Source: Gemmatimonadota bacterium (GTDB taxonomy: Bacteria > Gemmatimonadota > Gemmatimonadetes > Palauibacterales > Palauibacteraceae). From it: DNA of 64,000 nt. Shown here piece by piece: positions 1,417 to 51,942 of this stretch. A program made the position numbers and the translations under genes. A model generated the notes under the pieces. It did no database searches and was not told where the DNA came from. It saw only the letters and a program-made list of their open reading frames with translations. Location: the NCBI GenBank assembly GCA_046757485.1, contig JBHHYJ010000002.1, forward strand, positions 8,073-72,072. The letters run 5' to 3'. Each line of letters begins with the position of its first letter. Position 1 is the stretch's first letter.

Positions 1417-3141
1417 GTGAAGAGCCCGGGAGCCGCGTCCGCCGCTCTGCTGCTCGCCGTGCTCCCGCGCGTGACCGCGGGACAGGCCGGGGAGCGCGTG
1501 GAGACGCGGTCGGCCGGACAGGCGGAAGAGGAGGCTCTGGCCGCCCGCTGGCGGATGCCCCCCATGGAGATGGCGATGCCGATGCTCCCGGGGCTGCGGG
1601 ACCTCGTGCCCGATGTCTCCCCGTTCCTTCCCGGGCTGGGGGCAGACCTGACCGAGCTCCCGGAGGCGCGCCCTCCGTCCGTCGTCCGGCTGACCGACGG
1701 AGACACGCTCGACCTCGAGGCGGCCCTCCTGCGTCGCACGCTCGGGGACCGGGCCGTCAAGCTCTACGGTTTCAACGGAGAGCAGCCCGGCCCCCTGATT
1801 CGGGTTCGCCGGGGAGCCACCATCGTCGTCCGCTTCAGGAACCGGATCGAGCTTCCCATCACGCTCCGGTGGCACGGCGTCCGGCTGGAGAACCGTTACG
1901 ACGGCGTGCCCGGCCTGACCCAGAAGCCGGTCAGCCCCGGGGAGTCCTTCGTGTACCGGGTCCGGTTCGACGATCCCGGGCTTTTCTGGTATCACCCTCA
2001 TCAGCACGGGGAGATCGCCCAGGACCTCGGCCTGTACGGAAACATCCTCGTCGAGCCCGACCGGACGGACTACTACGCCCCGGTGAACCGGGAGGCGTTC
2101 CTCCTGCTCGACGACCTGCAGGTGGATGAGAAAGGGCTGCTGCCGTACGGGTTCGAGGCGCCGAACAACGCCCTCATGGGGCGGTTCGGCAATCTCCGCC
2201 TGGTGAACGGCGAGCCGGCGTACTCCCTCGAGGTCCACAGGGGAGAGGTCGTCCGGTTCTACGTCACCAACGCCTCGAACACGCGCACCTTCAACCTTTC
2301 CATGGGCCAGGCGCCGATGAAGCTGGTGGCCGCCGACCTGAGCAAGTACGAGCGGGAGGTCCGGGTGCCGAACGTGCCGGTCGCCCCGGGGCAGCGCTAC
2401 GTGATCGATGTCCACTTCCCCACCCCGGGCCGGGTGGCGATCACCAGCCACATCCAGGCGATGAACCATTTCGCCGGCGTGTTCGAGCCGCGGGTGGACA
2501 CGCTCGGAGCGGTGGTCGTGGACGAGAAGGCGGTGCAGGAGGAGTACGCCGAGGAGTTCGAGGAGCTCCGCGAGAACGAGGATGTGCGGGCCGACGTGGA
2601 GGGCCTGCGTGATTCCTTCGATCGACCCGTGGACCGGGAGCTGGTGCTCTCCGCCCGGGTAGGGGCCCTTCCCACCGTGGTCCTCGCGGTCATGGCGATG
2701 GACACGCTCTACTACCCACCGATCGAGTGGAACGACGCCATGCCGATGATGAACTGGCTCTCCACGGGTCGGGAGGTGCGGTGGATCGTGCACGAACCCG
2801 TCGCCGGCGGAGGGACGGCGGAGCTCCGACCGGCGGTCGGCTGGCGGTTTCGGCAGCACGACATCGTGAAGCTGCGGATTCGGAACCCCGCGCGCGGGTT
2901 CCATCCGATGCAACACCCGATTCATCTGCACGGACAGCGCTTCCTCGTCCTCGAGAGGGACGGAGTGCGGCAGTCCAACTTCGTGTGGCGGGACACGGTG
3001 CTCCTTCCGGTGGGGGCCACGGTGGATCTCCTGGTGGAGATGTCGAATCCGGGCCGCTGGATGCTGAACTGCCAGATTCCCGAGCACCTGGGATCCGGGA
3101 TGGCGATCACCTTCACGGTGCTTCCCTCTCCCGCCCGGTGA
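1417..3141 (+). CDS. Multicopper oxidase family protein (three-domain, laccase/CueO-like) with a non-canonical trinuclear copper site
   Basis: 574 aa with a Sec signal peptide. Cupredoxin motifs LRWHG, WYHPHQHG, HPIHLHG and C-terminal LNCQIPEHLGSGM. The T1 ligands Cys, His and Met are present, but the flanking T3 His residues are N and Q. GTG start. Confidence 0.85.
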   Translation: MKSPGAASAALLLAVLPRVTAGQAGERVETRSAGQAEEEALAARWRMPPMEMAMPMLPGLRDLVPDVSPFLPGLGADLTELPEARPPSVVRLTDGDTLDLEAALLRRTLGDRAVKLYGFNGEQPGPLIRVRRGATIVVRFRNRIELPITLRWHGVRLENRYDGVPGLTQKPVSPGESFVYRVRFDDPGLFWYHPHQHGEIAQDLGLYGNILVEPDRTDYYAPVNREAFLLLDDLQVDEKGLLPYGFEAPNNALMGRFGNLRLVNGEPAYSLEVHRGEVVRFYVTNASNTRTFNLSMGQAPMKLVAADLSKYEREVRVPNVPVAPGQRYVIDVHFPTPGRVAITSHIQAMNHFAGVFEPRVDTLGAVVVDEKAVQEEYAEEFEELRENEDVRADVEGLRDSFDRPVDRELVLSARVGALPTVVLAVMAMDTLYYPPIEWNDAMPMMNWLSTGREVRWIVHEPVAGGGTAELRPAVGWRFRQHDIVKLRIRNPARGFHPMQHPIHLHGQRFLVLERDGVRQSNFVWRDTVLLPVGATVDLLVEMSNPGRWMLNCQIPEHLGSGMAITFTVLPSPAR

Positions 3142-10438: not shown

Positions 10439-12505
10439 TCATGATTTCGACGTTCTATCCCCGTCCCCGGCCGCTTCCTTCGGCTTCACCTGGATGAGCC
10501 GGTCGATGAGGAGTCGGCCGGCCCCGCTCCTTACCTCCAGGTGCAGCTCCCCGGGCCGCCGCGGCGTGATCTCGAAGTCGAACGTCTCCCCGATGCTCAC
10601 CGTCCGCTCCGCGGGCACCAGCGCTCGCTGGTGGGCCGGCAGGTCCCAGCCGTCCTCGGCCACCGGCCGCCACAGGACCGGGGCGCCGCCCCGGACGAGA
10701 CGCACCCGCAGGTTGCCGTTTCCCAACGTGATGTTCATGAGCCGCAGTCGGTAGGTCGTTCCGACCCGAAACTCCGTCGGCCCGGGCTTGGACGTCCCGT
10801 TCAACTGAGGTCCCTGGCCCGTCGGGGAGAGCCCGAGCAGCAGGATCCGATCCGTCTCGGGGTCCCACTCCTCGCCCTCGTCCAGCACCACGAAGGCCCC
10901 GTACAGCCCCGAGCCCTGCTGGCGCAGGTCGCTCACGTGGGTGTGGTACATGTAGCTTCCGGCCCTGGGCGGCGTGATCCGCATCTCGAAGGAGTCTCCC
11001 GGCATGATCGCCGGGGTCAGCTTCTTCGGGTAGCCGCTCGCCCCCGCCACCCCGTCGAAGTAGCTCTCGATCTCCAGCCCGTGCCAGTGGACCTGGGTGG
11101 GCTCCGGGGTCCGGTTGATCACCGTCACGCTGGTGGGTTCTCCCTTCCACAGGACGATGGGGGAGCCGGGCAGGCGCACGGAGTCCGGGGGCGGCTCCCG
11201 CTCCCCCTCCTGGAGGACGTAGGCGTAGCGTTTCTGGAACGGCTTCTGGAGGAACGCGCGGGTCGCGGAGTCGGCCGGCACGGAGTCCGCCTGCACGAAG
11301 AGGCGCAGCCGCCGGCGCCGCGGCTCCCGGGGAACCCATCCCTCGGGCGGCCGGATGTAGGTGAAGAGGAGGAGGCCTCCCATGCCAGTCTCCGCGTGGT
11401 GCTCGGCGTCCCCCTCGTGCCCGACGAAGATCTTCCGGAAGCGGACCGCCTCCGTCTCCTCCTCCCCCGGCCGGAGAGAGGGGTTGGGGACGACGTGGAA
11501 GCTGTTGTGGCAGTGGAAGATCCACCCTCCTGGCCGGTCCGGCGACCAGACGATCTTCATCGTGGTCCCCGGCGCCATCCGCTCGGTGACCGCCATGCGC
11601 CGCTGGGCCAGCCAGTAGATCGTGTCCCGGCCGATGTCGCCGCGGGAGTCCACCCGGTAGAAGAAGCCGTGCAGGTGCATCGGGTGGACCGCACCCGAGG
11701 CGTTGATCAGTCGCCAGCGGATCGAGTCTCCGAGCGCGTAGGTGAAGCGCTCGGTGAGCGGCCACGGCCGCCCGTTGATCGTCAGGAACTCCTTGCCGAA
11801 ATCGGGCTCGCCGTTCGGGTGCTTGCCGGGGATCCAGATCTGCATCACGAAAACGCGGTCCGTGGGCGGGCCCGCGGCGTCCGGTGGATCCACGATGAGC
11901 GCGCCGGCCAGGGGGGCGTCCTCGGCGATCCGGATCGCCGTGGGCGAGCCCTTCAGACGCCCCCGGTAGTAGTAGGTCCCCTCGGCGTCGGCCGGAAAGC
12001 GAACCTCCCGGCTCTCCCCCGGCCGCACGACGAGGCTGTCCATCGCCGCCACCCGGCGGGCCGCGAGCCCCCACACGACGAGATCCGCATCCAGCGGGTT
12101 CCGCACCGTCGCCCGGATCTCGGTCCCCAGGGGAACGCGGATCATCGGGCCGGGAATCTGGAGCTCCTTCCCGGCCTCCCCGAACGCCAGGACCTCGCCT
12201 CCCGGCTCTTCCTCGCCCAGCAGGTGCCACACGCCGCGCCGCACCTCGAGCTCCAGGGTCAGCACGCCGTCTCGTAGCGTGCCGGCCGGCGTCTGGTTGT
12301 CGTTCCACCCCACGCTCGGAAGGCGACCGACCGACGAGAGCTCGCCTCCCGCGGCGTTTCCTCGCACATCGGAGAGCGCGGGGGGCGCCGACGGCCAATC
12401 CGAGCCGGGGCCCGACGGCCCCGGGCCGGGGAGCCACACCCAGAGACCCGCGAGCCCCGCCAAGCTCAACCAGGTGAAACGCTGTCCAAGGCTTTCGCCC
12501 CTCAT
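10439..12505 (-). CDS. Multicopper oxidase family protein, four cupredoxin-like domains with unusual motif order
   Basis: 688 aa with signal peptide. HPMHLHG and HCHNSFH (T1/T3 set) at about aa 265-330 precede VHWHG and YMYHTHV (T2/T3 set) at about aa 470-520. The first and last cupredoxin-like domains lack copper ligands (LVVWGLAARR in place of HWHG). Confidence 0.85.
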   Translation of the reverse strand: MRGESLGQRFTWLSLAGLAGLWVWLPGPGPSGPGSDWPSAPPALSDVRGNAAGGELSSVGRLPSVGWNDNQTPAGTLRDGVLTLELEVRRGVWHLLGEEEPGGEVLAFGEAGKELQIPGPMIRVPLGTEIRATVRNPLDADLVVWGLAARRVAAMDSLVVRPGESREVRFPADAEGTYYYRGRLKGSPTAIRIAEDAPLAGALIVDPPDAAGPPTDRVFVMQIWIPGKHPNGEPDFGKEFLTINGRPWPLTERFTYALGDSIRWRLINASGAVHPMHLHGFFYRVDSRGDIGRDTIYWLAQRRMAVTERMAPGTTMKIVWSPDRPGGWIFHCHNSFHVVPNPSLRPGEEETEAVRFRKIFVGHEGDAEHHAETGMGGLLLFTYIRPPEGWVPREPRRRRLRLFVQADSVPADSATRAFLQKPFQKRYAYVLQEGEREPPPDSVRLPGSPIVLWKGEPTSVTVINRTPEPTQVHWHGLEIESYFDGVAGASGYPKKLTPAIMPGDSFEMRITPPRAGSYMYHTHVSDLRQQGSGLYGAFVVLDEGEEWDPETDRILLLGLSPTGQGPQLNGTSKPGPTEFRVGTTYRLRLMNITLGNGNLRVRLVRGGAPVLWRPVAEDGWDLPAHQRALVPAERTVSIGETFDFEITPRRPGELHLEVRSGAGRLLIDRLIQVKPKEAAGDGDRTSKS

Positions 12506-13343: not shown

Positions 13344-16300
13344 TCAGCGGAGCTCGGCCAGGCGGTGGCGGGCAGCGGCCACGGTGCTCTCGAGCTCCGG
13401 CTCGGCGGCTGTCCACAGCTCGACGAAGCGAGCGTAGTGAGTGGCGGCCTGTGGACCGTTGCCCAGCACGTCGAGGATCTGGGCGCGACGGAGGTGGGAG
13501 GGGGCCAGGAAAGGCAGATCGTGCCCGGCGGGATCCGGAAAGGTCGAGTACCAGCGCATTGCCTCGGTCGCTCGCCCCAGCTCCTGATTCACGACTCCGC
13601 GCAGGTAGCGCTCGTAGCCGCGAGGATAGTCCAGCAGGTGCTCGTAGGACGCCCGTGGAGGAAGGGGGAGGCCGTCGAGAATCACGCGGGCCTTCTCCGG
13701 ATTCCCTTCCCGCCGGGCGGCTTCCGCCCGAAGCACCCCCGCCAGCCGCCGCGCCAATCGGGACCCCGGACCTTCCTCCACCGCCAGGGTGTCGATGAGC
13801 CGGCGCGCCGTCCGCGCGTCCCCCATGCGCAGGGAGAGCAACCCCTCCAGGTAATACCGGCGAGGCCGGTACAGGCCAGGCCACAGGATCGGGGGAAACT
13901 CCGCGCTCTGCCACCAGATCGGGTCACTCCGCGGGGGGAGCGGCCGGTTCCGCTCCAGCGCGTCCAGGGCCCCCCACAGGCTGTCCCGCGACTCCAGCGA
14001 GTGGGGAGCGAGCGGAAGCACAGCCGCCATGGCTCGATACTCCAGCACCCGGGCCCTCGGCAGAGACCCCGATCTCCGCAACAGCTCCCCGGCTTCCCGA
14101 AACCGCCCCTGAGCCAGGAGGAGCTGGCCAAGGAGCAGCTGGAGCTTCGCCCGTTCCGCTCGGGGGAGCTCCCCCGCGAGCACGTAGCGGGCCATCCGGA
14201 CGGCACCTTCCAGATTGTTCGTGTTCGAGGCGACGCTCGCGAGGACGTGTCGGGCGCGAACCGGGGCCGCCGCGACAGCTCGAATCGCTCGTTCCTGCCG
14301 AGCGAGATCTCCGGAGAGAAACGCCCGCAGGGCTTCAAGCTCCAGGGCCCACCGGCCCGTGGCACGGTATGCGTGAGCGAGGAGGGTGAGAGAGTCCAGC
14401 TCGGCGACGTTCCTTTCGCGAGCCGCCAGCCGGGCCAGATGGACGATCGGCTCGACGCGCGAGGGCTCCAGGGCTACGGCCCGCTCGAGCGCCTCCCGCG
14501 CTTCCAGCGACGCATGGCCGAGGCTGGGTCCCCAGTGGAAGCGAAGCTCGCCGAGCTGTTCCCAGGCCTCCGCGTGGCTCGGTCGCAGCGTGACCGCCTC
14601 CCGATAGTACTCCTCGGCCGAGTCCACGACACCTGCCAGGTGATACCGCCACGCCGCGACGAGCAGGCTGTCGTCCCGGGAGAGCCGGTCCGCATGGCGC
14701 AGGGCCGCTCTGGCGGCGGGGACGGGGATCCCCGAGCGTCCGCCCGCGTACGCCGCGCTGCTCAGACGATAATGGGCCAGCGCGAAGGCCGAGTCCTCGC
14801 GCACGGCTTCCTGGTACTCCCGGACCGCTTCCTCGTAGCGGCCGGCGCGCAGGGCTTCCTCTCCACGCAGGAACTCCTTGAGCGCATTCAGGTTCTCGGT
14901 CGCTCGCGTCGCCCGCCGCGCGACCTGGGTGACGCTCCGCAGACCCAGGAGCTGCGCCGCGAGCCGATCGGCCAGCGTGAATACGTCAGCCGTGGAAGCT
15001 TCCACGACTGCCTCCGTGGGACCGCCGAGGCCGAAGTGGTCGCGCCCGTACAACGCGGCACGCACCCGGAGCCTGCCGCCCACCTCGGTGATCTCTCCCA
15101 GAACGAAGGAGCCGGCTCCGAACCGGCGTGCCACCGCGGCCGCGGCGTCCGGCTCCCATCGGGGCTCGGAGCCGCCATCCAGGAAGCCGAGCAGGGAGCG
15201 AGAATCCACGCTCCGAAGAGCTCCGGCTCCATCCAGGTTAGCGGACAGGAGGCCGACCATCCCCTCCCGCAGGAACGCGAACTCCTCGTCCCCCTGGTAG
15301 GCGAACGGAAAGACGGCGACCACGCCCTCGGACCACGTCTCGGAGGAAGACTCGGTCCGGCCGACCAGCAGCCCGATCGCCAGCAGAGCGAGCGCACTCG
15401 CCGACAGCCCACTCATGACGGCCCACCGGCGCAAACCCCGCCAGGATCGCCGGGCGGCTGCCCGCGGGGGTCCCGCCTCCGACTCTCGTCGGCCGGGGGA
15501 CGCCGTCCCGTCGGTCGGCACCGGGCCATCGGTCGAACCGCTCTCGGGCGACCGCGACGCCACCGAGGCCCCCGCCACGGCGGCCCCTGCCACCGGCTCC
15601 GTGGCGGCGTCACCCCGAGAGCGGAGGCCGACGCCGGCCCGGGCCCCGGCCCGGGCGGGCCCCGACCGTTTCACCTCCGCCACCACGGCCCGGGTCTGCG
15701 GTGAGGGCTCCACCCCGTACGCCGCCGAGACCCGAGCCGCGAACTCCTCGTACGCCCGGACCGCCCCCGTCCGGTCGCCGGCGCTCACGAGCAGAGAGAG
15801 CAGACGGCGCGCGACGACCTCATCGTCCCGCGACAGCACGAGGGCACGCCGAACGTAGTGTACGGCCAGATCATGGTTTCCGTCCGCCTCGGCCGCCGCC
15901 GCGAGCCGGCCGGCGACGGCCACCGCCCGGTGGCAGAGGCGACCCCGCTCCGCCTCCAACCAGCGCTCGAACTCGAACGCCTCCCCGATGAAGAAGCCCT
16001 CCAGAAGGTCTCCCCGATACAGCTCCAGGGCATCCGCCTCTCGACCCGCTTCCAGGCAGCGCTCGAACTCGACCGCGTCACACTGCACCCGGGCGAGATC
16101 CACGCGCAGTTCCCCATCGCCTCGGGAGAGGATCGTCTCGGCACCCAGGGCGCGGCGCAGGTAGTGGATCGCGTTCCGCAGCGCTCCGCGGGCGCGCGCC
16201 TCGTCCGACTCCGGCCAGAAGACGCCGAGGAGCGCGTCCCGGCGCTCCGGGCCACGGGCGCTCCGCAGCGTCAGGTAGGCGAACAGGGCCAACCGGCGCG

Positions 16301-16382
16301 GCTGCGCGAGCACGGAACGGATCTCTTGGCCGCCCAGATGACGCAACTCGACGGCACCCAGGAGGCGAAACTCGATCGTCAT
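13344..16382 (-). CDS. SARP/AfsR-family (BTAD) transcriptional regulator with a transmembrane segment and C-terminal TPR-repeat region
   Basis: 1012 aa. N-terminal OmpR-type winged helix plus bacterial transcriptional activation domain (LLGAVELRHLGGQ...LALFAYLTL..., RGDLLEGFF, ERWLEAER). One TM helix (WAVMSGLSASALALLAIGLLVG) follows, then about 600 aa of TPR-like repeats. Confidence 0.8.
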   Translation of the reverse strand: MTIEFRLLGAVELRHLGGQEIRSVLAQPRRLALFAYLTLRSARGPERRDALLGVFWPESDEARARGALRNAIHYLRRALGAETILSRGDGELRVDLARVQCDAVEFERCLEAGREADALELYRGDLLEGFFIGEAFEFERWLEAERGRLCHRAVAVAGRLAAAAEADGNHDLAVHYVRRALVLSRDDEVVARRLLSLLVSAGDRTGAVRAYEEFAARVSAAYGVEPSPQTRAVVAEVKRSGPARAGARAGVGLRSRGDAATEPVAGAAVAGASVASRSPESGSTDGPVPTDGTASPGRRESEAGPPRAAARRSWRGLRRWAVMSGLSASALALLAIGLLVGRTESSSETWSEGVVAVFPFAYQGDEEFAFLREGMVGLLSANLDGAGALRSVDSRSLLGFLDGGSEPRWEPDAAAAVARRFGAGSFVLGEITEVGGRLRVRAALYGRDHFGLGGPTEAVVEASTADVFTLADRLAAQLLGLRSVTQVARRATRATENLNALKEFLRGEEALRAGRYEEAVREYQEAVREDSAFALAHYRLSSAAYAGGRSGIPVPAARAALRHADRLSRDDSLLVAAWRYHLAGVVDSAEEYYREAVTLRPSHAEAWEQLGELRFHWGPSLGHASLEAREALERAVALEPSRVEPIVHLARLAARERNVAELDSLTLLAHAYRATGRWALELEALRAFLSGDLARQERAIRAVAAAPVRARHVLASVASNTNNLEGAVRMARYVLAGELPRAERAKLQLLLGQLLLAQGRFREAGELLRRSGSLPRARVLEYRAMAAVLPLAPHSLESRDSLWGALDALERNRPLPPRSDPIWWQSAEFPPILWPGLYRPRRYYLEGLLSLRMGDARTARRLIDTLAVEEGPGSRLARRLAGVLRAEAARREGNPEKARVILDGLPLPPRASYEHLLDYPRGYERYLRGVVNQELGRATEAMRWYSTFPDPAGHDLPFLAPSHLRRAQILDVLGNGPQAATHYARFVELWTAAEPELESTVAAARHRLAELR

Positions 16383-16413
16383 GCGAAGAGCCCGACCTCG
16401 GAAAGGAAGAGGG

Positions 16414-16432
16414 CGTTAGCTGACAGCTAACG
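16414..16432. promoter_or_regulatory. Perfect palindrome CGTTAGCTG-A-CAGCTAACG (half-site CGTTAGC, N5 spacer), about 32-50 nt upstream of the SARP regulator start
   Basis: Read directly from sequence. Same half-sites and spacing as the palindrome at 13265-13283. Confidence 0.5.
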
Positions 16433-16652
16433 ACACACAAACGGGGCCGCGGGAGATTGTCAAGCACTGGAGCGGAGGGTCTCCCTCCCCACGCGGCCGC
16501 ACCCCGGTCAGTGGCTGTTCCACTGTTATGTAGCTGACCACCTGAGGAACGGAATGTCCTCTACCTACACCGTGATCCCCCGGGGACGCCGGCCGGGTGG
16601 CCGAGTCGTCCCGTTGACCGCAGCACGACCCGAAACCGATGGAGGAGCTTCG

Positions 16653-17120
16653 ATGCGAACCGCACACCTCATCCCGACGCTCGCGTGTCTGGCCGGCCTG
16701 GCACTCCCCGCGACCCTCCGTGCCCAGGACCAGGAAGAGGCACCGCCGGAGACGCGGGTTCTCACCGTCACCACCTTCCAGCTCCCCTCGGGCGAGGACG
16801 GACAGAAGGTGATGCAGTTCATCGATCGGGTGGTTGCCCCGCAGGCTCGAAACAACCCGAACATCCTCAGCTACCGGATCGCCCAGCACTACTGGGGCTC
16901 GAACTCCGCCGAGGTGAAGATCATCGCGGAGTACGCGAACTGGGCGGCGGTCGAGGCGCCGTGCGGCACTCCGTGCCAGGAGTGGGCGGAGGCCAACACC
17001 CCGGAGGAGGGAACACCGGAGCGCGAGGAGTTCGACGACCTCGCCCAGGCGTGGCAGCGCGCCTTCTTCCAGGGACACTCGGACGAGATCTACAGCGTAA
17101 ACATGAGTCGAGCGAAGTAG
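16653..17120 (+). CDS. Hypothetical secreted protein
   Basis: ATG at 16653 preceded by GGAGGAG. Signal peptide MRTAHLIPTLACLAGLALPATLRAQ. About 155 aa with two Cys (CGTPC). No family recognised. Confidence 0.45.
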   Translation: MRTAHLIPTLACLAGLALPATLRAQDQEEAPPETRVLTVTTFQLPSGEDGQKVMQFIDRVVAPQARNNPNILSYRIAQHYWGSNSAEVKIIAEYANWAAVEAPCGTPCQEWAEANTPEEGTPEREEFDDLAQAWQRAFFQGHSDEIYSVNMSRAK

Positions 17121-17276
17121 GAGACGGCCGGAGGGACTCGGAGGGGGCCCGGCGCCCCGGAGCCCTCTCCGAAGCCCGACCTGCCGTCCGGAGGTGAGGG
17201 GGACGAGGGGCTCGAGACTCTCGTCGAGCGGGGTGGCCGGGCCATAACTTGTTCCGATGACCCAGGGACCCGCCGC

Positions 17277-18083
17277 GTGACGCCCACCTCCCGGGACCGG
17301 CCGCCGACCCGGCGGATCCCGGAGCTCACCCTGGCCGTTCTGGTGGGAGTGTACCTGGCCGTCTCCATCGTGGCCTACACGGATCATCCACGTCACGGAT
17401 CCGACCCACCGCTGACCGACCTCGAGCGACGCGGCCTCGGCGTATGGCGTAGCCACGACTGCCAGGCGTGCCACCAGCTCTACGGCTTCGGCGGATTCCT
17501 GGGCCCCGACCTCACGAATCGGGTCACCGACGGGACACCGGATGCGGAGCTCCGCTCCATCCTCGAGGAGGGGGCCCGAGCCATGCCGGCCTTCCACCTC
17601 TCGCCAGCGGAGCGGCGCGCGGTCCTCGCGTTCCTGCGGGCCGTCGACCGCACGGGCCAGTCGCAGCCCACGCCGGTCGCGGCCCGCCGCCGAGTAAACC
17701 CGACCGAGCAGCTCGAGCGCCTGGCCGGCGCATGGTTGGAGAGCGGAGCTCCGGATCTGACCCGCGGCGAGCGTCACGGGCTCCAGGCATGGAGCCGCTT
17801 CGGCTGCGGTGCCTGCCACACGCCGTTCACTCTCGGTCGGCTGAGGGCGCCGGATCTGTCGCGCGCCGCCGTGGACCGTTCCGTTTCGGGCCTGCGCCGG
17901 GTCCTCCGGCACGGACGGCGAAACATGCCCCCCTACCCTCGGGCGGCGGAGCAGGCGGAGGAGCTGAGCGCCTTCCTCACGTGGGTCTCCTTGAATCGGG
18001 CCGAGCTGAGGGCTCTGAACGACCGCATGCTGGAGCGGGAGGCGTTTTCCTGGAGTGCCGTGCCATGGTGGGAGTACCGGTGA
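17277..18083 (+). CDS. Membrane-anchored di-haem c-type cytochrome
   Basis: Two CxxCH motifs (CQACH, CGACH). N-terminal TM helix LTLAVLVGVYLAVSIV. Met residues consistent with axial ligands. Confidence 0.75.
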   Translation: MTPTSRDRPPTRRIPELTLAVLVGVYLAVSIVAYTDHPRHGSDPPLTDLERRGLGVWRSHDCQACHQLYGFGGFLGPDLTNRVTDGTPDAELRSILEEGARAMPAFHLSPAERRAVLAFLRAVDRTGQSQPTPVAARRRVNPTEQLERLAGAWLESGAPDLTRGERHGLQAWSRFGCGACHTPFTLGRLRAPDLSRAAVDRSVSGLRRVLRHGRRNMPPYPRAAEQAEELSAFLTWVSLNRAELRALNDRMLEREAFSWSAVPWWEYR

Positions 18084-19468
18084 CGGCGGCCGACGAAGGA
18101 CGCCCTCTCGCCTGGGCCGCCCTTCTGGCCCTCGGCGCGTGCGCCGGGACGCTCGTCGCCGGTGTGGGAGCCGCGCTCGCCTACACCAGGTGGGAAGCGC
18201 TCCTGCGAGGCGCTCACCTGACGTTGCCGCAGCTCCGATCCGTTCACGAATCGTTCGCCTTCGCGTGGGTGTTTCTGGGTGGCGTCGCCGTGGTGTATCT
18301 CTACCTCTTCCGCGACTGTCGCCCCCCCGCCCGGTGGGCCAGGCGACGCCTCCTGTGGCACGTGGGGCTGTGGGCGACCGCGGGCATCGGCATACTCGGG
18401 ACGCTCCTGGCGGGGCGCTTCACGGGGCGGGAGTACTTCGGCTACGACCCCGCTTTCTCCGTCCTCATCGGGCTCGGGTGGCTCTTGTTCGCCTGGAACT
18501 TCTTCGGACGGGGCGGGGCGTCCCTCCGTGGTCAGCCGGTGTACGTCTACATGTGGTCGGTGGCGATTCCGCTCTTCCTCGTCACCTTCGCGGAGGGGCA
18601 CCTCTACCTGCTGGAGCTCGTGAGCCGACGGCCGGTGCGGGATATCGCCATCCAGTGGAAGTCCAACGGCACGCTGGTCGGATCCTTCAACCTGCTCGCC
18701 TACGGCTCGTTGATGTACGTTTCCGCCTGTATCCAGGGGAGCGGGCGGTACGCTCGCTCCCGCACCGCGTTCAGCCTCTTCTTCGTCAGCCTCCTGAACA
18801 CGTTCACCAACTACGGACACCACACGTACCATCTCCCCCAGAGCTCCTGGATCCACTGGATCAGCTTCCTCGCCAGCATGCTCGAGGCGATCATCCTGGC
18901 CAAGGTGTTCCTGGATCTCATCGGGATGCTGAAGACCCGTCGAGCGGTGGCCGACCGGTCGGTGCCCGGGCGGCTCATCCGGTGGGGGACGGTATGGACG
19001 TTTCTGATGTTGCTCCTCGCGGTGGCCCTCGCGATTCCTCCTCTCAACGCGTTGGTCCACGGGACACACGTGGTCGTCGCTCATTCGATGGGGAGCATGA
19101 TCGGCATCGACTCCCTGATCCTGTGGGCCGGCCTCGCGTACCTGATCGGGCACCTGCTGGGCCCGCAACATCCCGCCCTGAACGGTGGACGGGTTCGGAT
19201 GGCGCTCCCCCTCCTCAGCGTCTGCCTCCTCGTGTTCCTGCTCGCCTACCTCGTCCGCGGCGCCGCCGCCGGGTGGGTCCGGTACATGGGACCGTCCGCC
19301 CCCGACCCTTCCCGGGTGTTCGAGCTCTTTCCCCTCGTCATGCTCGTCTCCGGCATCGGGCTGGCGGGGACCGCGCTGTGGGTCATCGGCCCATGGATGA
19401 TCGCCCTGGCGCCGGTGGCGATCGGGAGCCGTCGAGAACGCCGGCCGATACGGCCACCCGCACGGTGA
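18065..19468 (+). CDS. Haem-copper oxidase superfamily subunit I-like protein (NorB/CcoN-like, divergent)
   Basis: About 467 aa with about 12 predicted TM helices. Conserved His in helix II (SVHESF), EGH, an HH pair (NYGHHTYH), and an atypical helix-X pattern LVHGTHVVVAHSMGSM instead of HxH. The start overlaps the cytochrome c gene by 19 nt. Confidence 0.55.
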   Translation: MVGVPVTAADEGRPLAWAALLALGACAGTLVAGVGAALAYTRWEALLRGAHLTLPQLRSVHESFAFAWVFLGGVAVVYLYLFRDCRPPARWARRRLLWHVGLWATAGIGILGTLLAGRFTGREYFGYDPAFSVLIGLGWLLFAWNFFGRGGASLRGQPVYVYMWSVAIPLFLVTFAEGHLYLLELVSRRPVRDIAIQWKSNGTLVGSFNLLAYGSLMYVSACIQGSGRYARSRTAFSLFFVSLLNTFTNYGHHTYHLPQSSWIHWISFLASMLEAIILAKVFLDLIGMLKTRRAVADRSVPGRLIRWGTVWTFLMLLLAVALAIPPLNALVHGTHVVVAHSMGSMIGIDSLILWAGLAYLIGHLLGPQHPALNGGRVRMALPLLSVCLLVFLLAYLVRGAAAGWVRYMGPSAPDPSRVFELFPLVMLVSGIGLAGTALWVIGPWMIALAPVAIGSRRERRPIRPPAR

Positions 19469-19642
19469 CGAGCGCCGATCCTCTCTTCGCCACCCGCGGT
19501 TCGGAGGCACGCCGCGGTTGGGGCGTCGTGCCGCGGCACGCACCCGCAACGGGACAGGCCGAAACCGTTCCACCAGGTAGGTCGTACGGAATCCCGCTCC
19601 CGTTCCTTACAGCTTTCGCCCTCGACGCGAGGAGAGATACAG

Positions 19643-19975
19643 ATGGGGTTCCTGGTTCATATCCTGGTGACGGCGGTCCTTCTCCTGCTCATCGCCAAGC
19701 TCGTCTCCGGCTTCGAGCTGGACGGGTTCGGGGCGGCGGTGCTGGCGGCTCTCGGTCTCGGCCTGGTGAACGCCTTCCTGCGACCTCTGGCCCTCGTCCT
19801 GTCGCTCCCGGTGACCTTCCTGACCCTGGGCCTGTTCATCCTGGTCATCAACGCGCTGATGTTGTGGCTGGCCGCGGCGCTCGTCCCCGGCTTCCGGATC
19901 CGGGGCTTCGGGGCGGCGTTCACGGGCGCCCTCCTCCTCAGCGTGTTCAACTGGGTGGTGGGCCGGATCTTCTAG
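19643..19975 (+). CDS. Phage-holin-4_2 / DUF360 family small membrane protein
   Basis: 110 aa with four TM helices. Matches the DUF360 consensus ...LVNAFLRPLALVLSLPVTFLTLGLFILVINALMLWLAAALVPGF.I.GF.... Confidence 0.7.
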   Translation: MGFLVHILVTAVLLLLIAKLVSGFELDGFGAAVLAALGLGLVNAFLRPLALVLSLPVTFLTLGLFILVINALMLWLAAALVPGFRIRGFGAAFTGALLLSVFNWVVGRIF

Positions 19976-20074: not shown

Positions 20075-20635
20075 TCAGACGAAGAGCCGGGCGAGCCATT
20101 CCGCCACGCGACCGAGCTCGCGCACGTCGTGCTCCGTGAAGGCGGCCGGCCGATCGCTGTCCAGGTCCAGCTGCCCGTGGATCTCCCCCGACTCGGGATC
20201 CCGGATCAGGACGACGAGCTCGGAGCGCGTCTCCAGGCTACAGGCGAGATAGTTGTCGAGCGCGCGCACGTCCGGGACGTTGATGTCGCGGCCTTCGGCG
20301 ACCGCCGTCCCGCACACCCCCACCCCTACGGGGATCCGGACGTGGTCCGTGGGCCGGCCGACGTAGTTGTGGAGGACGAGCTCCCCGGCGGGAGGCGTCG
20401 GAGGTCCGGGCCGCGGCGGCCCCCCTTCGCCCCCGACCCGCGCCGGCTCCGCTTGGCCCCCGGACCTCGTCGAGGGCTCCAGCAGGTAGACGCCCACCCA
20501 GTGGAAGCGCTCCTCGGCCGCTTCGATGAGGCAGACCGCCTCCCGCAGCAGGTCATCCCGGTCGCCTCCCGCCGCGCGCCGCGAGGCGAGCGCACGGATC
20601 ACTTCCTCCGCGCTCAGCACCGATCGATCAGCCAA
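20075..20635 (-). CDS. GAF-domain protein (free methionine-(R)-sulfoxide reductase fRMsr/MsrC-like)
   Basis: 186 aa. HWVGVYLLE...VCGTAVAEG...SELVVLIRDPESGEIHGQLDLDS is typical of single-domain GAF/fRMsr proteins. Confidence 0.65.
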   Translation of the reverse strand: MADRSVLSAEEVIRALASRRAAGGDRDDLLREAVCLIEAAEERFHWVGVYLLEPSTRSGGQAEPARVGGEGGPPRPGPPTPPAGELVLHNYVGRPTDHVRIPVGVGVCGTAVAEGRDINVPDVRALDNYLACSLETRSELVVLIRDPESGEIHGQLDLDSDRPAAFTEHDVRELGRVAEWLARLFV

Positions 20636-20659: not shown

Positions 20660-21175
20660 TCATCCGCTTGAAGGCCTGTCCGGGGCCGCCCCCTGGGAGG
20701 CAGCCGACGGCCCGTCCCACGGGCCCTCCGCGGGGAGCTCCACCCCCTTCGGCTCCGCCACGGCCTCGGTTCCCCTGAGCCGATCCACCGCGGCGATCCC
20801 CGGGCCCGCGAAGACGAGGGTGAGAAGGGCGGCGATGAGCACGACGTTGAACTCCACCCCATCGTGCCCGGGGCCGATCACATACCACCCGCCGGCCGCG
20901 TGCACGAGCACGATCCCGAGGAACATCTCCACGCACAGGAGGAGCGCGATCGGGGTGACGAGGAACCCGACGATGAGGAGGAGCCCGCCGAAGAACTCCA
21001 GGACCGTGATGAGCCACGCCCAGTAGAGCGGCGCCGGGAAGCCGAGCTCGCCCAGCATCTGCGTCGTGAAGCCGACGCCGCCGATCAGCTTCGGGGCGCC
21101 ATGGGCGAGGTAGGTCACCCCGAGCACGACACGGAGAATCGCCAGCCCCAGCTGCGGATGCAGTCCTCTTCTCAT
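20660..21175 (-). CDS. DoxX family membrane protein
   Basis: 171 aa with four TM helices. LRVVLGVTYLAHGAPKL and GLLLIVGFLT match the DoxX pattern. Confidence 0.7.
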   Translation of the reverse strand: MRRGLHPQLGLAILRVVLGVTYLAHGAPKLIGGVGFTTQMLGELGFPAPLYWAWLITVLEFFGGLLLIVGFLVTPIALLLCVEMFLGIVLVHAAGGWYVIGPGHDGVEFNVVLIAALLTLVFAGPGIAAVDRLRGTEAVAEPKGVELPAEGPWDGPSAASQGAAPDRPSSG

Positions 21176-21247: not shown

Positions 21248-22432
21248 TCAGGCCACGACCAACAGCGCCGTACCGTACATGAGGAGGAGGCCGAGCGCCA
21301 ATCCCCCGGCGTTCAACGGCTCGAAGATGCCCTGGGGCCACTCCCGGTGCACGAGCTTCCCGACGACCCACACGACCTGGAAGATGGCCCCCGCGCCGAG
21401 CGCCAGGAAGAGTGTGGCGGCGATCGGCGAGTACGAGAAGCCGCCGATCCACGCGCCGCCGATGGTGGGCAGGCCGGCCGTGGCGCCCATCCCGGCCAGC
21501 TTCCGAAGACCCGGTCGATCGCCCGCCACGGGCGCGACGATCGCCAGGCCCTCCGTCGTGTTGTGGAGCGCGAAGCCGATCACCAGAAAGCTCCCCAGGG
21601 CGATCTCGCCGACCGAGTACGCGGCGCCGATCGCCAGCCCTTCTCCCAGGTTGTGGAGACCGATCCCCACGGCGATCAGATAGGCGATGCGGAGCCGAGA
21701 GACGGCCCTCGTGGGCGCCCTGTCTCCCGCTTCCCCGAGAGCGCGGAGCGCGAGGACCGCCACGCTGACCCCGATCAGGGTGAGGCCCACCCCCTGAAAC
21801 GCCCCCGGGACCCGCTCCGCCGTCTCCAGCGCTTCCTCCAGGGCATCCACGCCCAGGAAGATGAGGAGCCCCAGGGTGAGACTCAGGAAGAAGTGGAGCC
21901 ACCGCCGATCCACGCGCCGGAGGAAAGGAAACCACAGGAGGCCGAGGAGAACCGGGACCACCCCGGCGTACAGGCCCAAAAGGGTGAACGTCCCCAGGTA
22001 GCGGGCGTTCGGCCGCGGCGTCAGGGTCGCCACCTCGACCACCCGGGTGAAGGTGAGCCCCGTGGAAGTCACGATGGTAACCTGGTGCGGCTCACCCTCC
22101 AGCCACGGATAGGCCACGGTGAGGGTTCTCCGCCCGAGACGTGGGATCGTGAGGCTCCCGTCGATCTCGAACAGCCGGTAGGCCACGTCCACCTGGAGCT
22201 GGGCGATGGTCGACGCTTCCGGTCCACCGTTCACGAGGTGAACCTCCATCGTGCCCGGCTCCGGGAAGGTGACCCGCTCGATCGTCAGCTCTTCGAGCGG
22301 CGGGAAAGCGGCCCGGAACGGCCCCGTCGGGTCGAACCGCACGAAGAGGCCTATCAGCCCCGCCAGCAGGAAGAGGGGCAGCAACCCCCATACCCACCGA
22401 CGCCCCGAGGCCACCCCTCGCCTCTCAGCCAT
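21248..22432 (-). CDS. ZIP family metal (Zn/Fe) transporter with an N-terminal extracytoplasmic extension
   Basis: C-terminal GLHNLGEGLAIGAAY and ALHNTTEGLAI are ZIP signature helices. The probable start is M29 of the track ORF (MAERRGVASGRRWVWGLLPLF), overlapping the upstream gene stop by 8 nt. Confidence 0.8.
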   Translation of the reverse strand: MAERRGVASGRRWVWGLLPLFLLAGLIGLFVRFDPTGPFRAAFPPLEELTIERVTFPEPGTMEVHLVNGGPEASTIAQLQVDVAYRLFEIDGSLTIPRLGRRTLTVAYPWLEGEPHQVTIVTSTGLTFTRVVEVATLTPRPNARYLGTFTLLGLYAGVVPVLLGLLWFPFLRRVDRRWLHFFLSLTLGLLIFLGVDALEEALETAERVPGAFQGVGLTLIGVSVAVLALRALGEAGDRAPTRAVSRLRIAYLIAVGIGLHNLGEGLAIGAAYSVGEIALGSFLVIGFALHNTTEGLAIVAPVAGDRPGLRKLAGMGATAGLPTIGGAWIGGFSYSPIAATLFLALGAGAIFQVVWVVGKLVHREWPQGIFEPLNAGGLALGLLLMYGTALLVVA

Positions 22433-23543
22433 ACTTGTACACCGGCACCCCGTCGTTGGCGGCCAGCGCGGGCACGGCGTCGAAGAATCCCAGCCAACCC
22501 AGCTCTGCGAACTCACTTTGGTGGGCGTGAAACAGGTGGAGGCCCGGATGCTCGAGCTCCATCTCCAGAATGTGCCGCTCGCCCTGGCAGAGCATCACGG
22601 TGTCGGTGAGCTCGTACTGGTCGGTCCGCGTGCCCGTCCGGTATACCCGGAACATCCCGGCGTGTAGGTGCAGGGAGTTCACCGGATCGAACTCGGTGAT
22701 GTTGACCAGGTAGATGCGAACAGGCTCGCCCACTCCGACCCGGATCGGGTGGGTCTGATAGTAGAAGGCCGCGGTGTTGACCGCGTACACCTCGTTCTCC
22801 TCGTCGAAATTCGTGTCGAAGCCGTTCATCACCATCACGAGCTCGCGGGCGGGTGGGCGACCCTCCGCCGGATCCACGATGAAGGCCCCGTACAGGCCTC
22901 TGTGGATGTGCCGCTTGAGGGGCAAGGTGTGGCAGTGATACAGGTGGAGGCCGAACGGCTTCGCCTCGAACTCGTAGGTGAACTTCTCCCCTGGCTCCAC
23001 GACCGGCTCCAGTCCGTCCATCTCCGGTGGGTGGGTCCCGTGGAAGTGGATCGTGTGGGGGTGGGATCCGGCGTTCACGAAGTGAACCCGCAGAAGGTCT
23101 CCCTCCGTGCAGCGGATGGTCGGGCCGGGAACCTGGCCGTTGTAGGTGTAGGCCGGAAACCATACTCCCGGGGCCACCTCGATCTCCCGGTCGAGGGCGA
23201 CCATCTGGAACTCGCGGACCGTTCGCCCACCGCCCGTGCGACTCACCTGGCCGAAGTCGAAGTCGGTGAGGAACGTCTCCGGGTCGAAGCCGTCCCGAGG
23301 CTTTCCGTCCCCGATCACTCCCATCCGGAGCTGGTGGCTCCCGGGCGAACCTCCCTGTGGCCCGCTCAGCTCGTGCAGCGCCTCCTCTTCCTGCAGGCCG
23401 GCAGTCGGGACTCCGGCCGCCGCCAAGGAGGCGGAGGCACCGCTTCGCGAAGCGAGACGCAAGACCGCCGTGCCGGAGAGCCCGGCCACACCGGCCGCCC
23501 CCAGCTTCAGCCAATCCCGTCGCGTCAGCTCCTGCGGCTTCAT
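22425..23543 (-). CDS. Two-domain multicopper oxidase (small laccase/NirK-like fold), Tat-secreted
   Basis: 372 aa. Tat motif TRRDWLKLGAAGVAG. His-rich copper motifs HPHTIHFHG, LYHCH...HIH, HLHAGM and LFHAHQ. Confidence 0.75.
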   Translation of the reverse strand: MKPQELTRRDWLKLGAAGVAGLSGTAVLRLASRSGASASLAAAGVPTAGLQEEEALHELSGPQGGSPGSHQLRMGVIGDGKPRDGFDPETFLTDFDFGQVSRTGGGRTVREFQMVALDREIEVAPGVWFPAYTYNGQVPGPTIRCTEGDLLRVHFVNAGSHPHTIHFHGTHPPEMDGLEPVVEPGEKFTYEFEAKPFGLHLYHCHTLPLKRHIHRGLYGAFIVDPAEGRPPARELVMVMNGFDTNFDEENEVYAVNTAAFYYQTHPIRVGVGEPVRIYLVNITEFDPVNSLHLHAGMFRVYRTGTRTDQYELTDTVMLCQGERHILEMELEHPGLHLFHAHQSEFAELGWLGFFDAVPALAANDGVPVYKYG

Positions 23544-49787: not shown

Positions 49788-50189
49788 CTACGGCACGACC
49801 GCGGTCGCCTCGATCTCCAGCAACGCCTCCTCGTCTGCCAGCCCCTTCACCTCCACGAGCGCCATGGTGGGGTAGTGCCGATCCATCAGCCGGCGGTAGG
49901 CTACGCCCAGCGCCCTGCGGTTCCCCAGGTACTCCTCCAGGTCCGTGACGTACAGCGTGAGGCGCCCGATGTCCGCCGGTTCCCCGCCCGCCTCTCGGAC
50001 GACGGCCACGACCTTCGAGAGAGCCCGCTCGAACTGCTCCACCAGGCCGAAGGTGCGGACGACGCCGTCCGCGTCGCTCGCCGTCTGCCCGGCGACGAAC
50101 AGGAGGCGCCCGGGCGCCGTCGTCAGGAGACCGTGGTTCCAGCCGCGGGGGGTCCCCAGCGGTTCCGGGTTGATGATGCGGTATCTCAC
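49788..50189 (-). CDS. RidA/YjgF family enamine/imine deaminase
   Basis: 133 aa. LLFVAGQTA...VVRTF...RLTLYVTD...VEVKGLA is the RidA fold signature. Confidence 0.8.
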   Translation of the reverse strand: MRYRIINPEPLGTPRGWNHGLLTTAPGRLLFVAGQTASDADGVVRTFGLVEQFERALSKVVAVVREAGGEPADIGRLTLYVTDLEEYLGNRRALGVAYRRLMDRHYPTMALVEVKGLADEEALLEIEATAVVP

Positions 50190-50247
50190 TCGAGCCTCGC
50201 TTCCTGGACGGGGTCTCCCGCCGGTCGACCGGGGTGACGCGGCTCCC

Positions 50248-51078
50248 TCACTCGTCCGGCGCCACCCCGCCGTCCGGTCCGGCCGCCGATCCGTCTCCCA
50301 TGACGATGGCCTCCCCGTTCGTTCGGCCGCCCTCCTCGCCGCACAGGGCGAGGACCGCCCTGGCGACCTCCGCCGGGGAGAGGAGCCGGGACTGGCCCGC
50401 GGCCCGCAGGATCGCCTCCCGCGCCTCCTCCTCCGTCCTCCCGGTCTTCCGCACGATGCGGCGGACGGACTCTCGGGTCATCTCCGTGTCCACGTAGCCC
50501 GGGCACACGGCGTTCACGGTCACCCCGGTTCCCTCGACCTCCGCCGCGGCGCAGCGCGTGAGGCCGACGACGGCGTGCTTCGAGGCGGCGTACGCCGCGA
50601 TGTAGGGCGCCCCCCCGAGACCCGCCACGGACGCCACGTTCACGATCCGCCCCCGGCCCCGCTCCACCATGCGGGGCAGGAAGGCGCGGAGGACGAGGAA
50701 CGTCCCCGTCGCGTTCACCGCGAGCGTCCGGTTCCACTCCTCGAGCGTCAGACCCGTCACCGGGGCGGAGCCCGCCACCCCGTGGCTGTTCACCAGGATC
50801 TCCACCCGGCCCACGAGCTCGGCCGCCTCCCCCGCCAGGCTCCGCACGCTGGCCGGGTCCGTCACGTCGCAGCGGACCGCCGCCGCTACGTCACCGCGCT
50901 CGCGCAGCTCGGCGGCCACCCGCTCGATCTCCTCCTCCGTGCGGGCCGCGACCACGACCGCGGCTCCGGCGCCGGCCAGCTCCCGGGCGACCGCCGCACC
51001 GATCCCCCGGCCCCCGCCGGTGACAACGGCCCCGCGCCCCGCGAGCCTCCCGTCGAGGGCTCCGCGCGCCCCGCTCAC
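50248..51078 (-). CDS. SDR family oxidoreductase (3-hydroxyacyl-CoA/3-oxoacyl reductase-like)
   Basis: TGGGRGIGAAVA (cofactor motif), NSHGV and YAASKHAV (YxxxK). ATGA overlap with the upstream gene. Confidence 0.85.
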   Translation of the reverse strand: MSGARGALDGRLAGRGAVVTGGGRGIGAAVARELAGAGAAVVVAARTEEEIERVAAELRERGDVAAAVRCDVTDPASVRSLAGEAAELVGRVEILVNSHGVAGSAPVTGLTLEEWNRTLAVNATGTFLVLRAFLPRMVERGRGRIVNVASVAGLGGAPYIAAYAASKHAVVGLTRCAAAEVEGTGVTVNAVCPGYVDTEMTRESVRRIVRKTGRTEEEAREAILRAAGQSRLLSPAEVARAVLALCGEEGGRTNGEAIVMGDGSAAGPDGGVAPDE

Positions 51079-51884
51079 GGCCCCCCTCCCGCTCCCCCCT
51101 TCCGTCTCCCTTCGCCTCCGCCTCCCACGGAACGATCGATCTCCGCCCGCACGGCCTCCGCCAGGATCTCGCCCAGCCGCTCGATCGTGCGCCGGCCCTC
51201 CGCCTCCGTGGCCTCGGCCGGAGCGCCGAAGTACGCGCGCGGGCCGCCCGCCTCCTCGAAGCTCGCCTTCCCGTCCCGAATCGCCTCGGAGAGAGAGACC
51301 GGGTTAGGGGGAAGCTCCCGGCACACCGCCTCCCGCACGAGCTCCGGCCGCCGGGCGAGGACGATCGAGGTCTCGTACCGACCGGCGTGGCAGGCTCCGC
51401 TCCGGAACTCCTCCGTCAGCCGGAGCGCCCACGGCTTCCGGGTGAGGTCGGGGAAGACGACCCGCGCTCCGGCCTCCCGCCGCGCCTCCTCGGCGCCCGT
51501 CCGGAGCGCCGCGAGGTGGGCCGGGTCCAGGTGCGCGTTGGCGATCGCCAGGTGCCCGATCCCGTGCCGGGCGAGCCCGCGGGCGACCTCGGCCACGAGG
51601 GCACTCACCGTCGCGGGGCGCGCCGAGATCGTCCCGGGGAACCCGGCGCCGAACTCCGCCGCCGTGTACGCCAGCGGGGGGAGAAGGAGCGGCTCGAATC
51701 CCTCGCCGGCCAGTCGCTCCGCCGCCGCCTCGGCCATCGCCTCGGCGATCAGGACGTCCGTGCCCAGGGGGAGGTGCGGGCCGTGGGCCTCTACCGCTCC
51801 CACGGGCAGGACCGCCACCGCCCGCGACCGATCCCGGTCCCGGAGCTCCTCCCAGGTCATCTCGAACAGCCTCGACACCGGCAT
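51075..51884 (-). CDS. Creatininase / ArfB-family amidohydrolase (candidate formamidase)
   Basis: VLPVGAVEAHGPHLPLGTDVLIAEA and GHLAIANAH..RYETS are creatinine-amidohydrolase-fold motifs. First gene of the minus-strand catabolic operon. Confidence 0.75.
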   Translation of the reverse strand: MPVSRLFEMTWEELRDRDRSRAVAVLPVGAVEAHGPHLPLGTDVLIAEAMAEAAAERLAGEGFEPLLLPPLAYTAAEFGAGFPGTISARPATVSALVAEVARGLARHGIGHLAIANAHLDPAHLAALRTGAEEARREAGARVVFPDLTRKPWALRLTEEFRSGACHAGRYETSIVLARRPELVREAVCRELPPNPVSLSEAIRDGKASFEEAGGPRAYFGAPAEATEAEGRRTIERLGEILAEAVRAEIDRSVGGGGEGRRKGGAGGGP

Positions 51885-51942
51885 CGCGCGGCCCCCGTCT
51901 CCCGTTGCCCGTCATTCTAGCCGCGGAGTATCATCCGGCACC

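Follow-up and report, generated by a model that had tools for sequence, protein, structure and literature searches.

The 64,000-nucleotide window analysed here (positions 8,073 to 72,072 of contig JBHHYJ010000002.1, assembly GCA_046757485.1, from a bacterium of the Gemmatimonadota) carries two overlapping genes, one coding for a membrane-anchored di-haem cytochrome c (17277..18083, 268 amino acids) and the other for a divergent subunit I of the haem-copper oxidoreductase (HCO) superfamily (18065..19468, 467 amino acids, 12 transmembrane helices). Judged from its sequence, this pair is a member of an uncharacterised sister family of the cytochrome c-dependent nitric oxide (NO) reductases (cNOR), of which our literature searches found no description. 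We consider the placement of the family next to cNOR, together with its cofactor architecture, to be highly probable. The broader reading, that of a cytochrome c-dependent reductase that would act on a small nitrogen oxide, most likely NO, by means of a haem and a non-haem metal, is one that we regard as evenly balanced. A sequence-only reading of the same DNA had pointed to an overlapping pair of genes, and both open reading frames (ORFs) were found where it had placed them.

The HCO protein passed the Pfam COX1 profile weakly (61 bits against a cutoff of 34.8) and fell far below the cutoff of the ccoN equivalog TIGR00780 (22.8 bits against 583). A phmmer search of the PDB with the single sequence gave no match, and only family profiles reached CcoN and NorB. 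The AlphaFold2 model, built with 40 homologues (mean predicted local distance difference test score, pLDDT, of 87; predicted TM-score, pTM, of 0.89), contains 12 transmembrane helices, the number that had been anticipated earlier for an oxidase-like subunit of about 467 amino acids. Its best structural matches were CcoN (3mk7, 8smr) and NorB (3o0r, 4xyd), which reached TM-scores of 0.72-0.80 while sharing 16-18% identity, and qNOR, bo3, ba3 and aa3 ranked below them; the Foldseek probability was 1.00 to CcoN, NorB, qNOR, ba3 and aa3. All together, the COX1 score, the 12-helix model and the Foldseek matches assign the protein to the HCO superfamily, and cofactor binding is predicted from the conserved ligands.

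The haem and metal ligands were mapped in two ways, by aligning a profile of the 40 homologues end to end with CcoN and NorB of the PDB using HMMER, and by hhalign against aligned canonical NorB sequences. Of the six canonical histidines, four are kept (H61, H252, H253 and H340), and the positions of the other two are occupied by G202 and M342. Specifically, H61 in helix II (18245..18247; this and all other features of the pair lie on the + strand), the first axial ligand of the low-spin haem b, aligns with the His of 'LRPLH' in CcoN and of 'ARMVH' in NorB. The R122-E123-Y124 residues of a G-R-E-Y motif (18428..18436) align with 'KEY' in CcoN and 'GREF' in NorB, E123 corresponding to the Glu of the calcium site that bridges the two haems, which is E135 in the Pseudomonas aeruginosa numbering of NorB and E122 in CcoN. 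At the canonical helix-VI His of CuB/FeB, H207 of P. aeruginosa NorB, the protein has G202 (18668..18670) and the ligand is absent; on this position the HMMER alignments (three to CcoN, one to NorB) and hhalign agree, the latter pairing G202 with H200 of the NorB sequence P0355. The HH pair lies in the segment H252-H253-T-Y-H256 (18818..18832), where HH aligns with the GHH of NorB and H256 is a third His specific to the subtype described below. The helix-VIII residue E274 (18884..18886), which is the conserved active-site carboxylate of subtype 1, aligns with the Glu of 'SALEP' in NorB, E280 in P. aeruginosa.

In helix X, the segment H332-G-T-H335-V-V-V-A-H340-S-M342 (19058..19090), preceded by Leu-Val and followed by Gly, aligns with 'THGTQITAAHGH' of NorB and 'SHYTDWTIGHVH' of CcoN. 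Both HMMER and hhalign align H340 with the proximal ligand of the high-spin haem, and M342 stands at the second His of HxH (AH-S-M for AH-x-H), a ligand of the low-spin haem that is H349 in P. aeruginosa NorB. From the cNOR set of Glu211 (the FeB ligand), Glu215 and Glu280, in P. aeruginosa NorB numbering, only Glu280 is kept, as E274; the Glu211 position is G206 by HMMER and V205 by hhalign, and that of Glu215 is N209 by hhalign and L210 by HMMER. The sequence-only reading had recognised the helix-II His and the HH pair as kept, in agreement with the alignments of H61, H252 and H253 to canonical histidines, and had noticed HGTH....AH in place of HxH, a segment that is indeed present and that the alignments resolve into H340 and M342. 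Its account of the ligands was right about the anomaly of helix X and overlooked the loss of the helix-VI His.

Conservation was counted over 278 full-length members of the family, from at least six phyla. H61, H340 and Y124 are found in all of them, H252, H253 and H332 in 277 each, M342 and E123 in 276 each, and near-invariance extends to E177, D193, Q197, W198, N209, S271 and N328. Position 202 is never His, being Gly in 178 members and Asp in 99. A single carboxylate is present in one of two places: E274 accompanies G202 in 177 members and D202 accompanies A, G or S at position 274 in 99, with 2 exceptions. H256 occurs in 145 members, all of them with G202 and E274. Near the HH pair, no invariant Tyr was found among the 278 members, position 250 being F, Y or W and position 255 Y or F. 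Since homologues of up to 73% identity and the 278 members keep the same pattern as the window's protein, this pattern is not due to chance.

On these grounds, the family is divided into subtype 1a, to which the window's protein belongs (K/R199, G202, H256 and E274; 145 members), subtype 1b, which is the same without H256 (32 members), and subtype 2 (H/Q199, D202, usually G-H-H-H-Y, and A/G274; 99 members). In type 2, for example in P0218 (MDP6096938.1, from a metagenome-assembled genome (MAG) of a marine gammaproteobacterium), the motif Q-W-H-x-x-D carries a His three residues before the Asp. When the type-2 profile is aligned with 4xyd, HMMER gaps and shifts the helix-VI region; the equivalence of D202 with His207 is drawn from the conserved R-D anchor and from the alignment to the model of the 40 homologues. 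As predicted from these residues, type 2 solves the problem of this active site differently from type 1, and the exchange of E274 for D202 suggests, short of statistical proof, a compensation. In a rough neighbour-joining tree rooted on NorB, type 2 is monophyletic and 1b forms a grade basal to 1a, indicating that the Glu274/Asp202 exchange was one ancient event.

The family is widespread. We found 268 related proteins in a database clustered at 90%, with identities of up to 73% and, among the 120 listed, down to 44%; at least 429 clusters at 50% identity matched with E<=1e-3, 151 of them with E<=1e-30, and relatives are present in 243 species-level genomes. All the 80 listed loci come from MAGs, mostly labelled Planctomycetota, Gemmatimonadota and Acidobacteriota, with single bins of Anaerolineae, Gammaproteobacteria and Pseudobdellovibrionaceae, and the distant type-2 clade occurs in MAGs of Opitutales/Verrucomicrobia, Alpha- and Gammaproteobacteria and Saprospirales. 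Among the members encountered, none has a cultured organism as its source. Members are annotated as 'cbb3-type cytochrome c oxidase subunit I', 'cbb3 oxidase' or 'NorB'; contrary to these annotations, the family is, by its predicted ligands, one without the defining ligands of both the cbb3 oxidase and NorB.

As regards placement, the type-2 profile matched only NorB in the PDB (4xyd_A, 61 bits; 3o0r_B, 55 bits), with no CcoN at E<=10, and the first proteins beyond the family in a large protein database were canonical NorB, bearing HLWVEG, GHH, SALEP and AHGH. Therefore, we conclude that the family is sister to cNOR and not to cbb3. A standard CcoN was rejected on the TIGR00780 score, on G202 in place of the helix-VI His and on the lack of an invariant Tyr before HH, and a standard cNOR NorB because only four of the six histidines align, the same pattern recurring in 276-278 of the 278 relatives. 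The eNOR, sNOR, bNOR, nNOR and gNOR families were also rejected, since the nearest sequences and structures are cNOR and the C-family, not ba3, and subunit II is a c-type cytochrome; all five are B-family relatives whose homologue of subunit II is a cupredoxin (CuA-type) (PMC11214002). The sequence-only reading had expected a protein distinct from a standard CcoN or NorB with all six histidines, which is what the low ccoN score and the four aligned histidines indicate. Its proposal of an alternative NO reductase or oxidase family stands as far as an uncharacterised family is concerned, and has to be corrected in that this is a separate sister of cNOR and not eNOR, sNOR or gNOR.

With cNOR the family shares the helix-II His, the G-R-E motif, the R-D before helix VI, the HH pair, the helix-VIII Glu and the N...HGT....AH segment, as well as a subunit I of 12 transmembrane helices and a membrane-anchored, NorC-like N-terminal domain of subunit II. 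By contrast, the window's protein replaces the helix-VI His (H207) with Gly, Glu211 with Gly (HMMER) or Val (hhalign), Glu215 with Asn (hhalign) or Leu (HMMER) and H349 with Met, and it is only 16-18% identical to the solved NorB; its cytochrome has an extra CcoP-like haem c domain and Phe for Tyr73 of NorC. The likeness to the cbb3 oxidases (CcoNOP; PDB 3mk7, 8smr) consists of a TM-score of about 0.75, the helix-II 'LRPxH', the calcium-site Glu in 'KEY/REY', a weak profile match to CcoN (E=9e-5), the CcoP-like second cytochrome domain and the fusion of some relatives to a FixO/CcoO-like domain. Unlike cbb3, the family has neither the helix-VI His nor the helix-VII Tyr of the cross-linked cofactor and has Met for His on haem b, and there is no separate CcoO gene at the window's locus.

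The product of the upstream gene was matched twice by Pfam Cytochrome_CBB3. It starts with an Arg-rich segment followed by a hydrophobic anchor at about residues 13-37 (17313..17387), called from Kyte-Doolittle windows of 19 residues with values >1.6 that start at residues 13-19; the anchor aligns with the N-terminal region of NorC and would place the haem domains outside the membrane. The first haem c motif, C62-Q-A-C-H66 (17460..17474), is followed by the presumed distal ligand M103 (17583-17585), and the second, C177-G-A-C-H181 (17805..17819), by the presumed distal ligand M217 (17925-17927), which lies in an MP motif. C62, C65 and H66, M103 and P104, C177, C180 and H181, and M217 are all invariant among 35 homologues, and two CxxCH motifs are present in 76 of 81 homologous ORFs. 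These two motifs, each with a later MP methionine, bear out the di-haem cytochrome of the sequence-only reading.

The two halves of the cytochrome have different relatives. Used alone, the protein matched NorC 3o0r_C by phmmer (E=2e-6), and a family profile built from the 35 homologous cytochromes matched NorC over its N-terminal half (3o0r_C, E=3.8e-14, positions 21-116; 4xyd_B, E=4.3e-13) and CcoP over its C-terminal half (8smr_G, E=4e-12, positions 150-225; 3mk7_C, E=3e-9). In comparison with the mono-haem NorC of cNOR, the cytochrome therefore has the anchored NorC-like domain plus a second, CcoP-like haem domain; the Tyr73 of NorC that helps to bind Ca2+ is Phe here, and the adjoining Gly is kept. 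With a NorC-like N-domain, a CcoP-like C-domain and a subunit I nearest to CcoN and NorB, the earlier comparison with a NorC/NorB- or CcoP/CcoN-type pair was well founded. Four metagenomic proteins of ~790-824 amino acids (P0137, P0156, P0180 and P0189) join the HCO domain to FixO/CcoO-like and one or two cytochrome c domains, all C-terminal, which is the opposite of the N-terminal fusion of the qNOR type. Such natural fusions support a fixed entry of electrons through cytochrome c.

Both ORFs of the pair show the coding-type bias in GC content over codon positions, including the third (window GC, 70%; score of the cytochrome gene, 0.85). They overlap at 18065..18083, by 19 nucleotides with ATG 18065 as the start of the HCO gene or by 4 (GTGA) with GTG 18080 as its start. 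A candidate start of the HCO gene overlaps the cytochrome stop by 1-25 nucleotides in most of the 80 loci, and in the remaining few it lies within 1 nucleotide after it; the arrangement suggests a predicted translational coupling. At the junction (18063-18083), here and in the other loci, the bases of the C-terminal cytochrome motif P-W-[WF]-E-[YF] (18063..18077), which also encode the first residues of the HCO ORF, read as 'M-V-R/G-V' in the HCO frame. The motif is kept in nearly all of the 80 loci, and in the 35 homologues P263 and W264 never vary, while the conservation of E266 is at least 90%. The 'MVRV' with which many HCO homologues begin is thus probably a frame shadow of the PWFEY motif of the cytochrome, and for this reason the true start may be the GTG at 18080.

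The genomic context was sampled in the window and the 80 loci, 81 sequences in all, by clustering all against all the ORFs within ±7 kb. In 80 of these 81, the HCO gene is immediately preceded, on the same strand, by the cytochrome gene; the one exception is a locus whose contig stops at the HCO gene. Besides the cytochrome, no conserved neighbour was found across the 80 loci; other large clusters were discarded as shadow ORFs or as generic proteins (histidine kinase, ABC ATPase, WD40, short-chain dehydrogenase/reductase). The sequences show a conserved unit of two subunits, in which two c-haem sites are combined with an HCO scaffold keeping the ligands of two b-type haems, the calcium-site Glu and, at the active site, two histidines and one carboxylate. 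That the pair makes up a self-contained operon coding for one two-subunit enzyme is a reading that we hold at even odds; a consensus scan of 16300-19800 gave no match to a sigma-70 promoter or an intrinsic terminator.

As for the mechanism, electrons from a periplasmic donor would enter the outer, CcoP-like haem c and pass through the NorC-like haem c to the low-spin haem b, predicted to be ligated by His61 and Met342, a His/Met pair expected to raise its potential. They would then reach a binuclear site that comprises a high-spin haem, with proximal His340, and a non-haem metal with the putative ligands His252, His253 and Glu274, to which His256 would likely add the third His in subtype 1a. 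Subtype 1a would have a set of three His plus one Glu, like that of FeB, and subtype 1b a 2-His-1-carboxylate site. Protons would probably be taken from the periplasmic side, as in cNOR, since the R-D and G-R-E motifs of the cNOR type are kept. The reaction would be 2 NO + 2 e- + 2 H+ -> N2O + H2O. NO is favoured by the same reasoning that was used to predict sNOR, gNOR and nNOR, and we propose it as the substrate tentatively, with a confidence that falls a little short of even.

A number of points weigh against a reductase of NO. The family is known from sequences alone; its predicted active site has neither the helix-VI His nor the Glu211 that is an FeB ligand in cNOR, and both the metal-binding residues and the identity of the metal are deduced. 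The model is cofactor-free and of low confidence at the HH loop (pLDDT ~59). The E274/D202 exchange is, as far as the tree tells, one deep split, that is, one event and not many. A Pfam census of 174 flanking ORFs of the 80 loci showed no enrichment of nir, nor, nos, SCO or haem-biogenesis genes, and no nir, nor or nos gene was found among the annotated genes of the 64-kb window; the census also detected no norQ or norD nearby. With neither conserved neighbours nor nitrogen-oxide genes, the context gives no clue to function or substrate. The substrate may thus be NO, nitrous oxide (N2O) or another molecule, and the family may already have been flagged under the name 'N2O red'.

That the family catalyses something other than the classical conversion of NO to N2O, be it an HCO-type reduction of N2O or the reduction of another small oxidant at a haem / His-carboxylate metal centre supplied by a His/Met haem b of unusually high potential, seems to us unlikely. 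Quite unlikely is a membrane-bound, HCO-type N2O reductase (N2O + 2 e- + 2 H+ -> N2 + H2O) identical to the 'putative N2O red' family of Murali et al. 2024. Within the C-family branch, this is the sole new family said to be 'closely related to cNOR', with a tally of 293 GTDB genomes, 25 NCBI genomes and 597 IMG metagenome sequences; its authors speculate that it is an acetylene- and sulfide-insensitive N2O reductase, linked to such a membrane activity in Flexibacter canadensis (PMC11214002). The family of the window likewise branches next to cNOR, its type-2 profile matching only NorB and NorB being its first outgroup, and is of similar size, with its 243 species genomes; in addition, Gly at positions 202 and 206 in place of the bulky His and Glu may open the pocket, which could suit another substrate. 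However, the main text of PMC11214002 gives no sequence features of 'N2O red', and the match is one of description and size only; nor do the preprint of Murali et al. and the FIND preprint contain a description of that family. A search seeded from Saprospirales (Bacteroidota) returned no Solitalea/Flexibacter protein and none from cultured Bacteroidota, and the Pfam census of the flanking ORFs revealed no nos accessory genes near the pair. To our knowledge, no HCO has yet been shown to reduce N2O.

An enzyme reacting with O2, such as a very divergent cbb3-like oxidase, a peroxidase or an O2-scavenging enzyme, would be in keeping with the annotation of homologues as 'cbb3-type cytochrome c oxidase subunit I' at NCBI, with CcoN among the best structural matches, with the CcoP-like second domain of the cytochrome and with the hosts, the Gemmatimonadota, Planctomycetota and Acidobacteriota being largely aerobic groups. 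We nevertheless judge it very unlikely, given the ccoN score so far below the cutoff and a type-2 profile that matches NorB, not CcoN. The His-Tyr cofactor is needed for O2 reduction, and loss of the active-site Tyr indicates that O2 is not reduced (PMC11214002); here the helix-VI His of this cofactor is Gly, so that it cannot form, and there is no conserved Tyr at or near the C-family position. The least credible explanation is that the binuclear centre has been lost, leaving a non-catalytic relic or a protein that serves purely in electron transfer or as a sensor. Two of the six canonical histidines are lost, and the pair has no functional gene context, histidine kinases being its commonest neighbours with just 5-6 among 76 upstream and 98 downstream ORFs. 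On the other side, the 278 sequences hardly vary at H340, H252, H253, E123, the carboxylate and many polar residues, the lost ligands are replaced in a coordinate manner (Met for His; E274 or D202), and both the overlap of the genes and the partner cytochrome are conserved, all of which point to selection on an intact redox site. These data disfavour the non-catalytic homologue that the sequence-only reading had left as an option.

Some features of the proposed NO reductase recur in more distant families. In nNOR, which is predicted to be an NO reductase, the low-spin haem is ligated by His/Met, with an estimated rise in potential of ~150 mV (PMC11214002). The present family shares this ligation; nNOR, however, is B-family-related, with a homologue of the CuA-type subunit II and cNOR-like active-site residues (PMC11214002), and the His/Met ligation would thus be convergent. 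In gNOR, also a predicted NO reductase, an active-site His is changed to Asp (PMC11214002), as in the type-2 clade, where the Asp stands at the helix-VI position. By contrast, gNOR is B-family-related and has a cupredoxin subunit without CuA, possibly with quinol dependence (PMC11214002), and the window's protein, of subtype 1a, has Gly and not Asp at position 202 and Glu274 instead. Literature searches found no description of a cNOR-like enzyme with this ligand set. Three features have not been reported together: a low-spin haem b with His/Met ligation, a missing helix-VI His accompanied by one mobile carboxylate, and a di-haem subunit of the NorC plus CcoP type.

The HCO-type NO reductases produce N2O, a greenhouse gas, and gene surveys count the named families only; as a widespread family, the one described here may be an unrecognised player in nitrogen-oxide chemistry. 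Were NO its substrate, many Planctomycetota, Gemmatimonadota and Acidobacteriota that appear to lack NO reductases would be N2O producers or NO detoxifiers; were it N2O, the family would represent a second kind of N2O sink. Should a reaction other than that of NO to N2O be the true one, an unrecognised terminal reductase would exist in Planctomycetota, Gemmatimonadota, Acidobacteriota, Verrucomicrobiota and marine Proteobacteria. For enzymology, the family is a natural experiment on the HCO scaffold, with a His-to-Met change on the haem of electron entry, two placements of one carboxylate (E274 or D202) and an apparent migration of the third His.

Several other genes of the window are worth recording. 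Just upstream of the pair, the gene at 16554-17120 (+) encodes a protein of 188 amino acids whose N-terminus resembles a signal peptide and which matched neither Pfam nor NCBIfam; it is not conserved beside the pair in other genomes. Further upstream, 13344-16382 (-) encodes a 1012-amino-acid protein resembling BTAD and TPR transcriptional regulators. On the downstream side, 174 nucleotides past the HCO gene, 19643-19975 (+) encodes a protein of 110 amino acids with four transmembrane segments that matches Pfam Phage_holin_4_2 (117 bits), a gene that is not conserved at this place elsewhere. Three multicopper oxidases are encoded within 22 kb around the pair, at 1417-3141 (+), 10439-12505 (-) and 22425-23543 (-). 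The last is a two-domain protein with an N-terminus like that of twin-arginine translocation (Tat) substrates and an HCH motif, and adjoins genes for a ZIP transporter (21248-22516), a DoxX protein (20660-21175) and a GAF protein (20075-20635); it resembles NirK only in part and was rejected as such, since TIGR02376, whose cutoff is 296, gave 97 bits and in view of the HCH motif. These genes lie among ordinary housekeeping ones. At 49945-53547 (+), an ORF of 1200 amino acids overlaps two ORFs on the opposite strand (50248-51078 and 51075-51884, -), and all three have a high third-position GC, which leaves the coding strand ambiguous.

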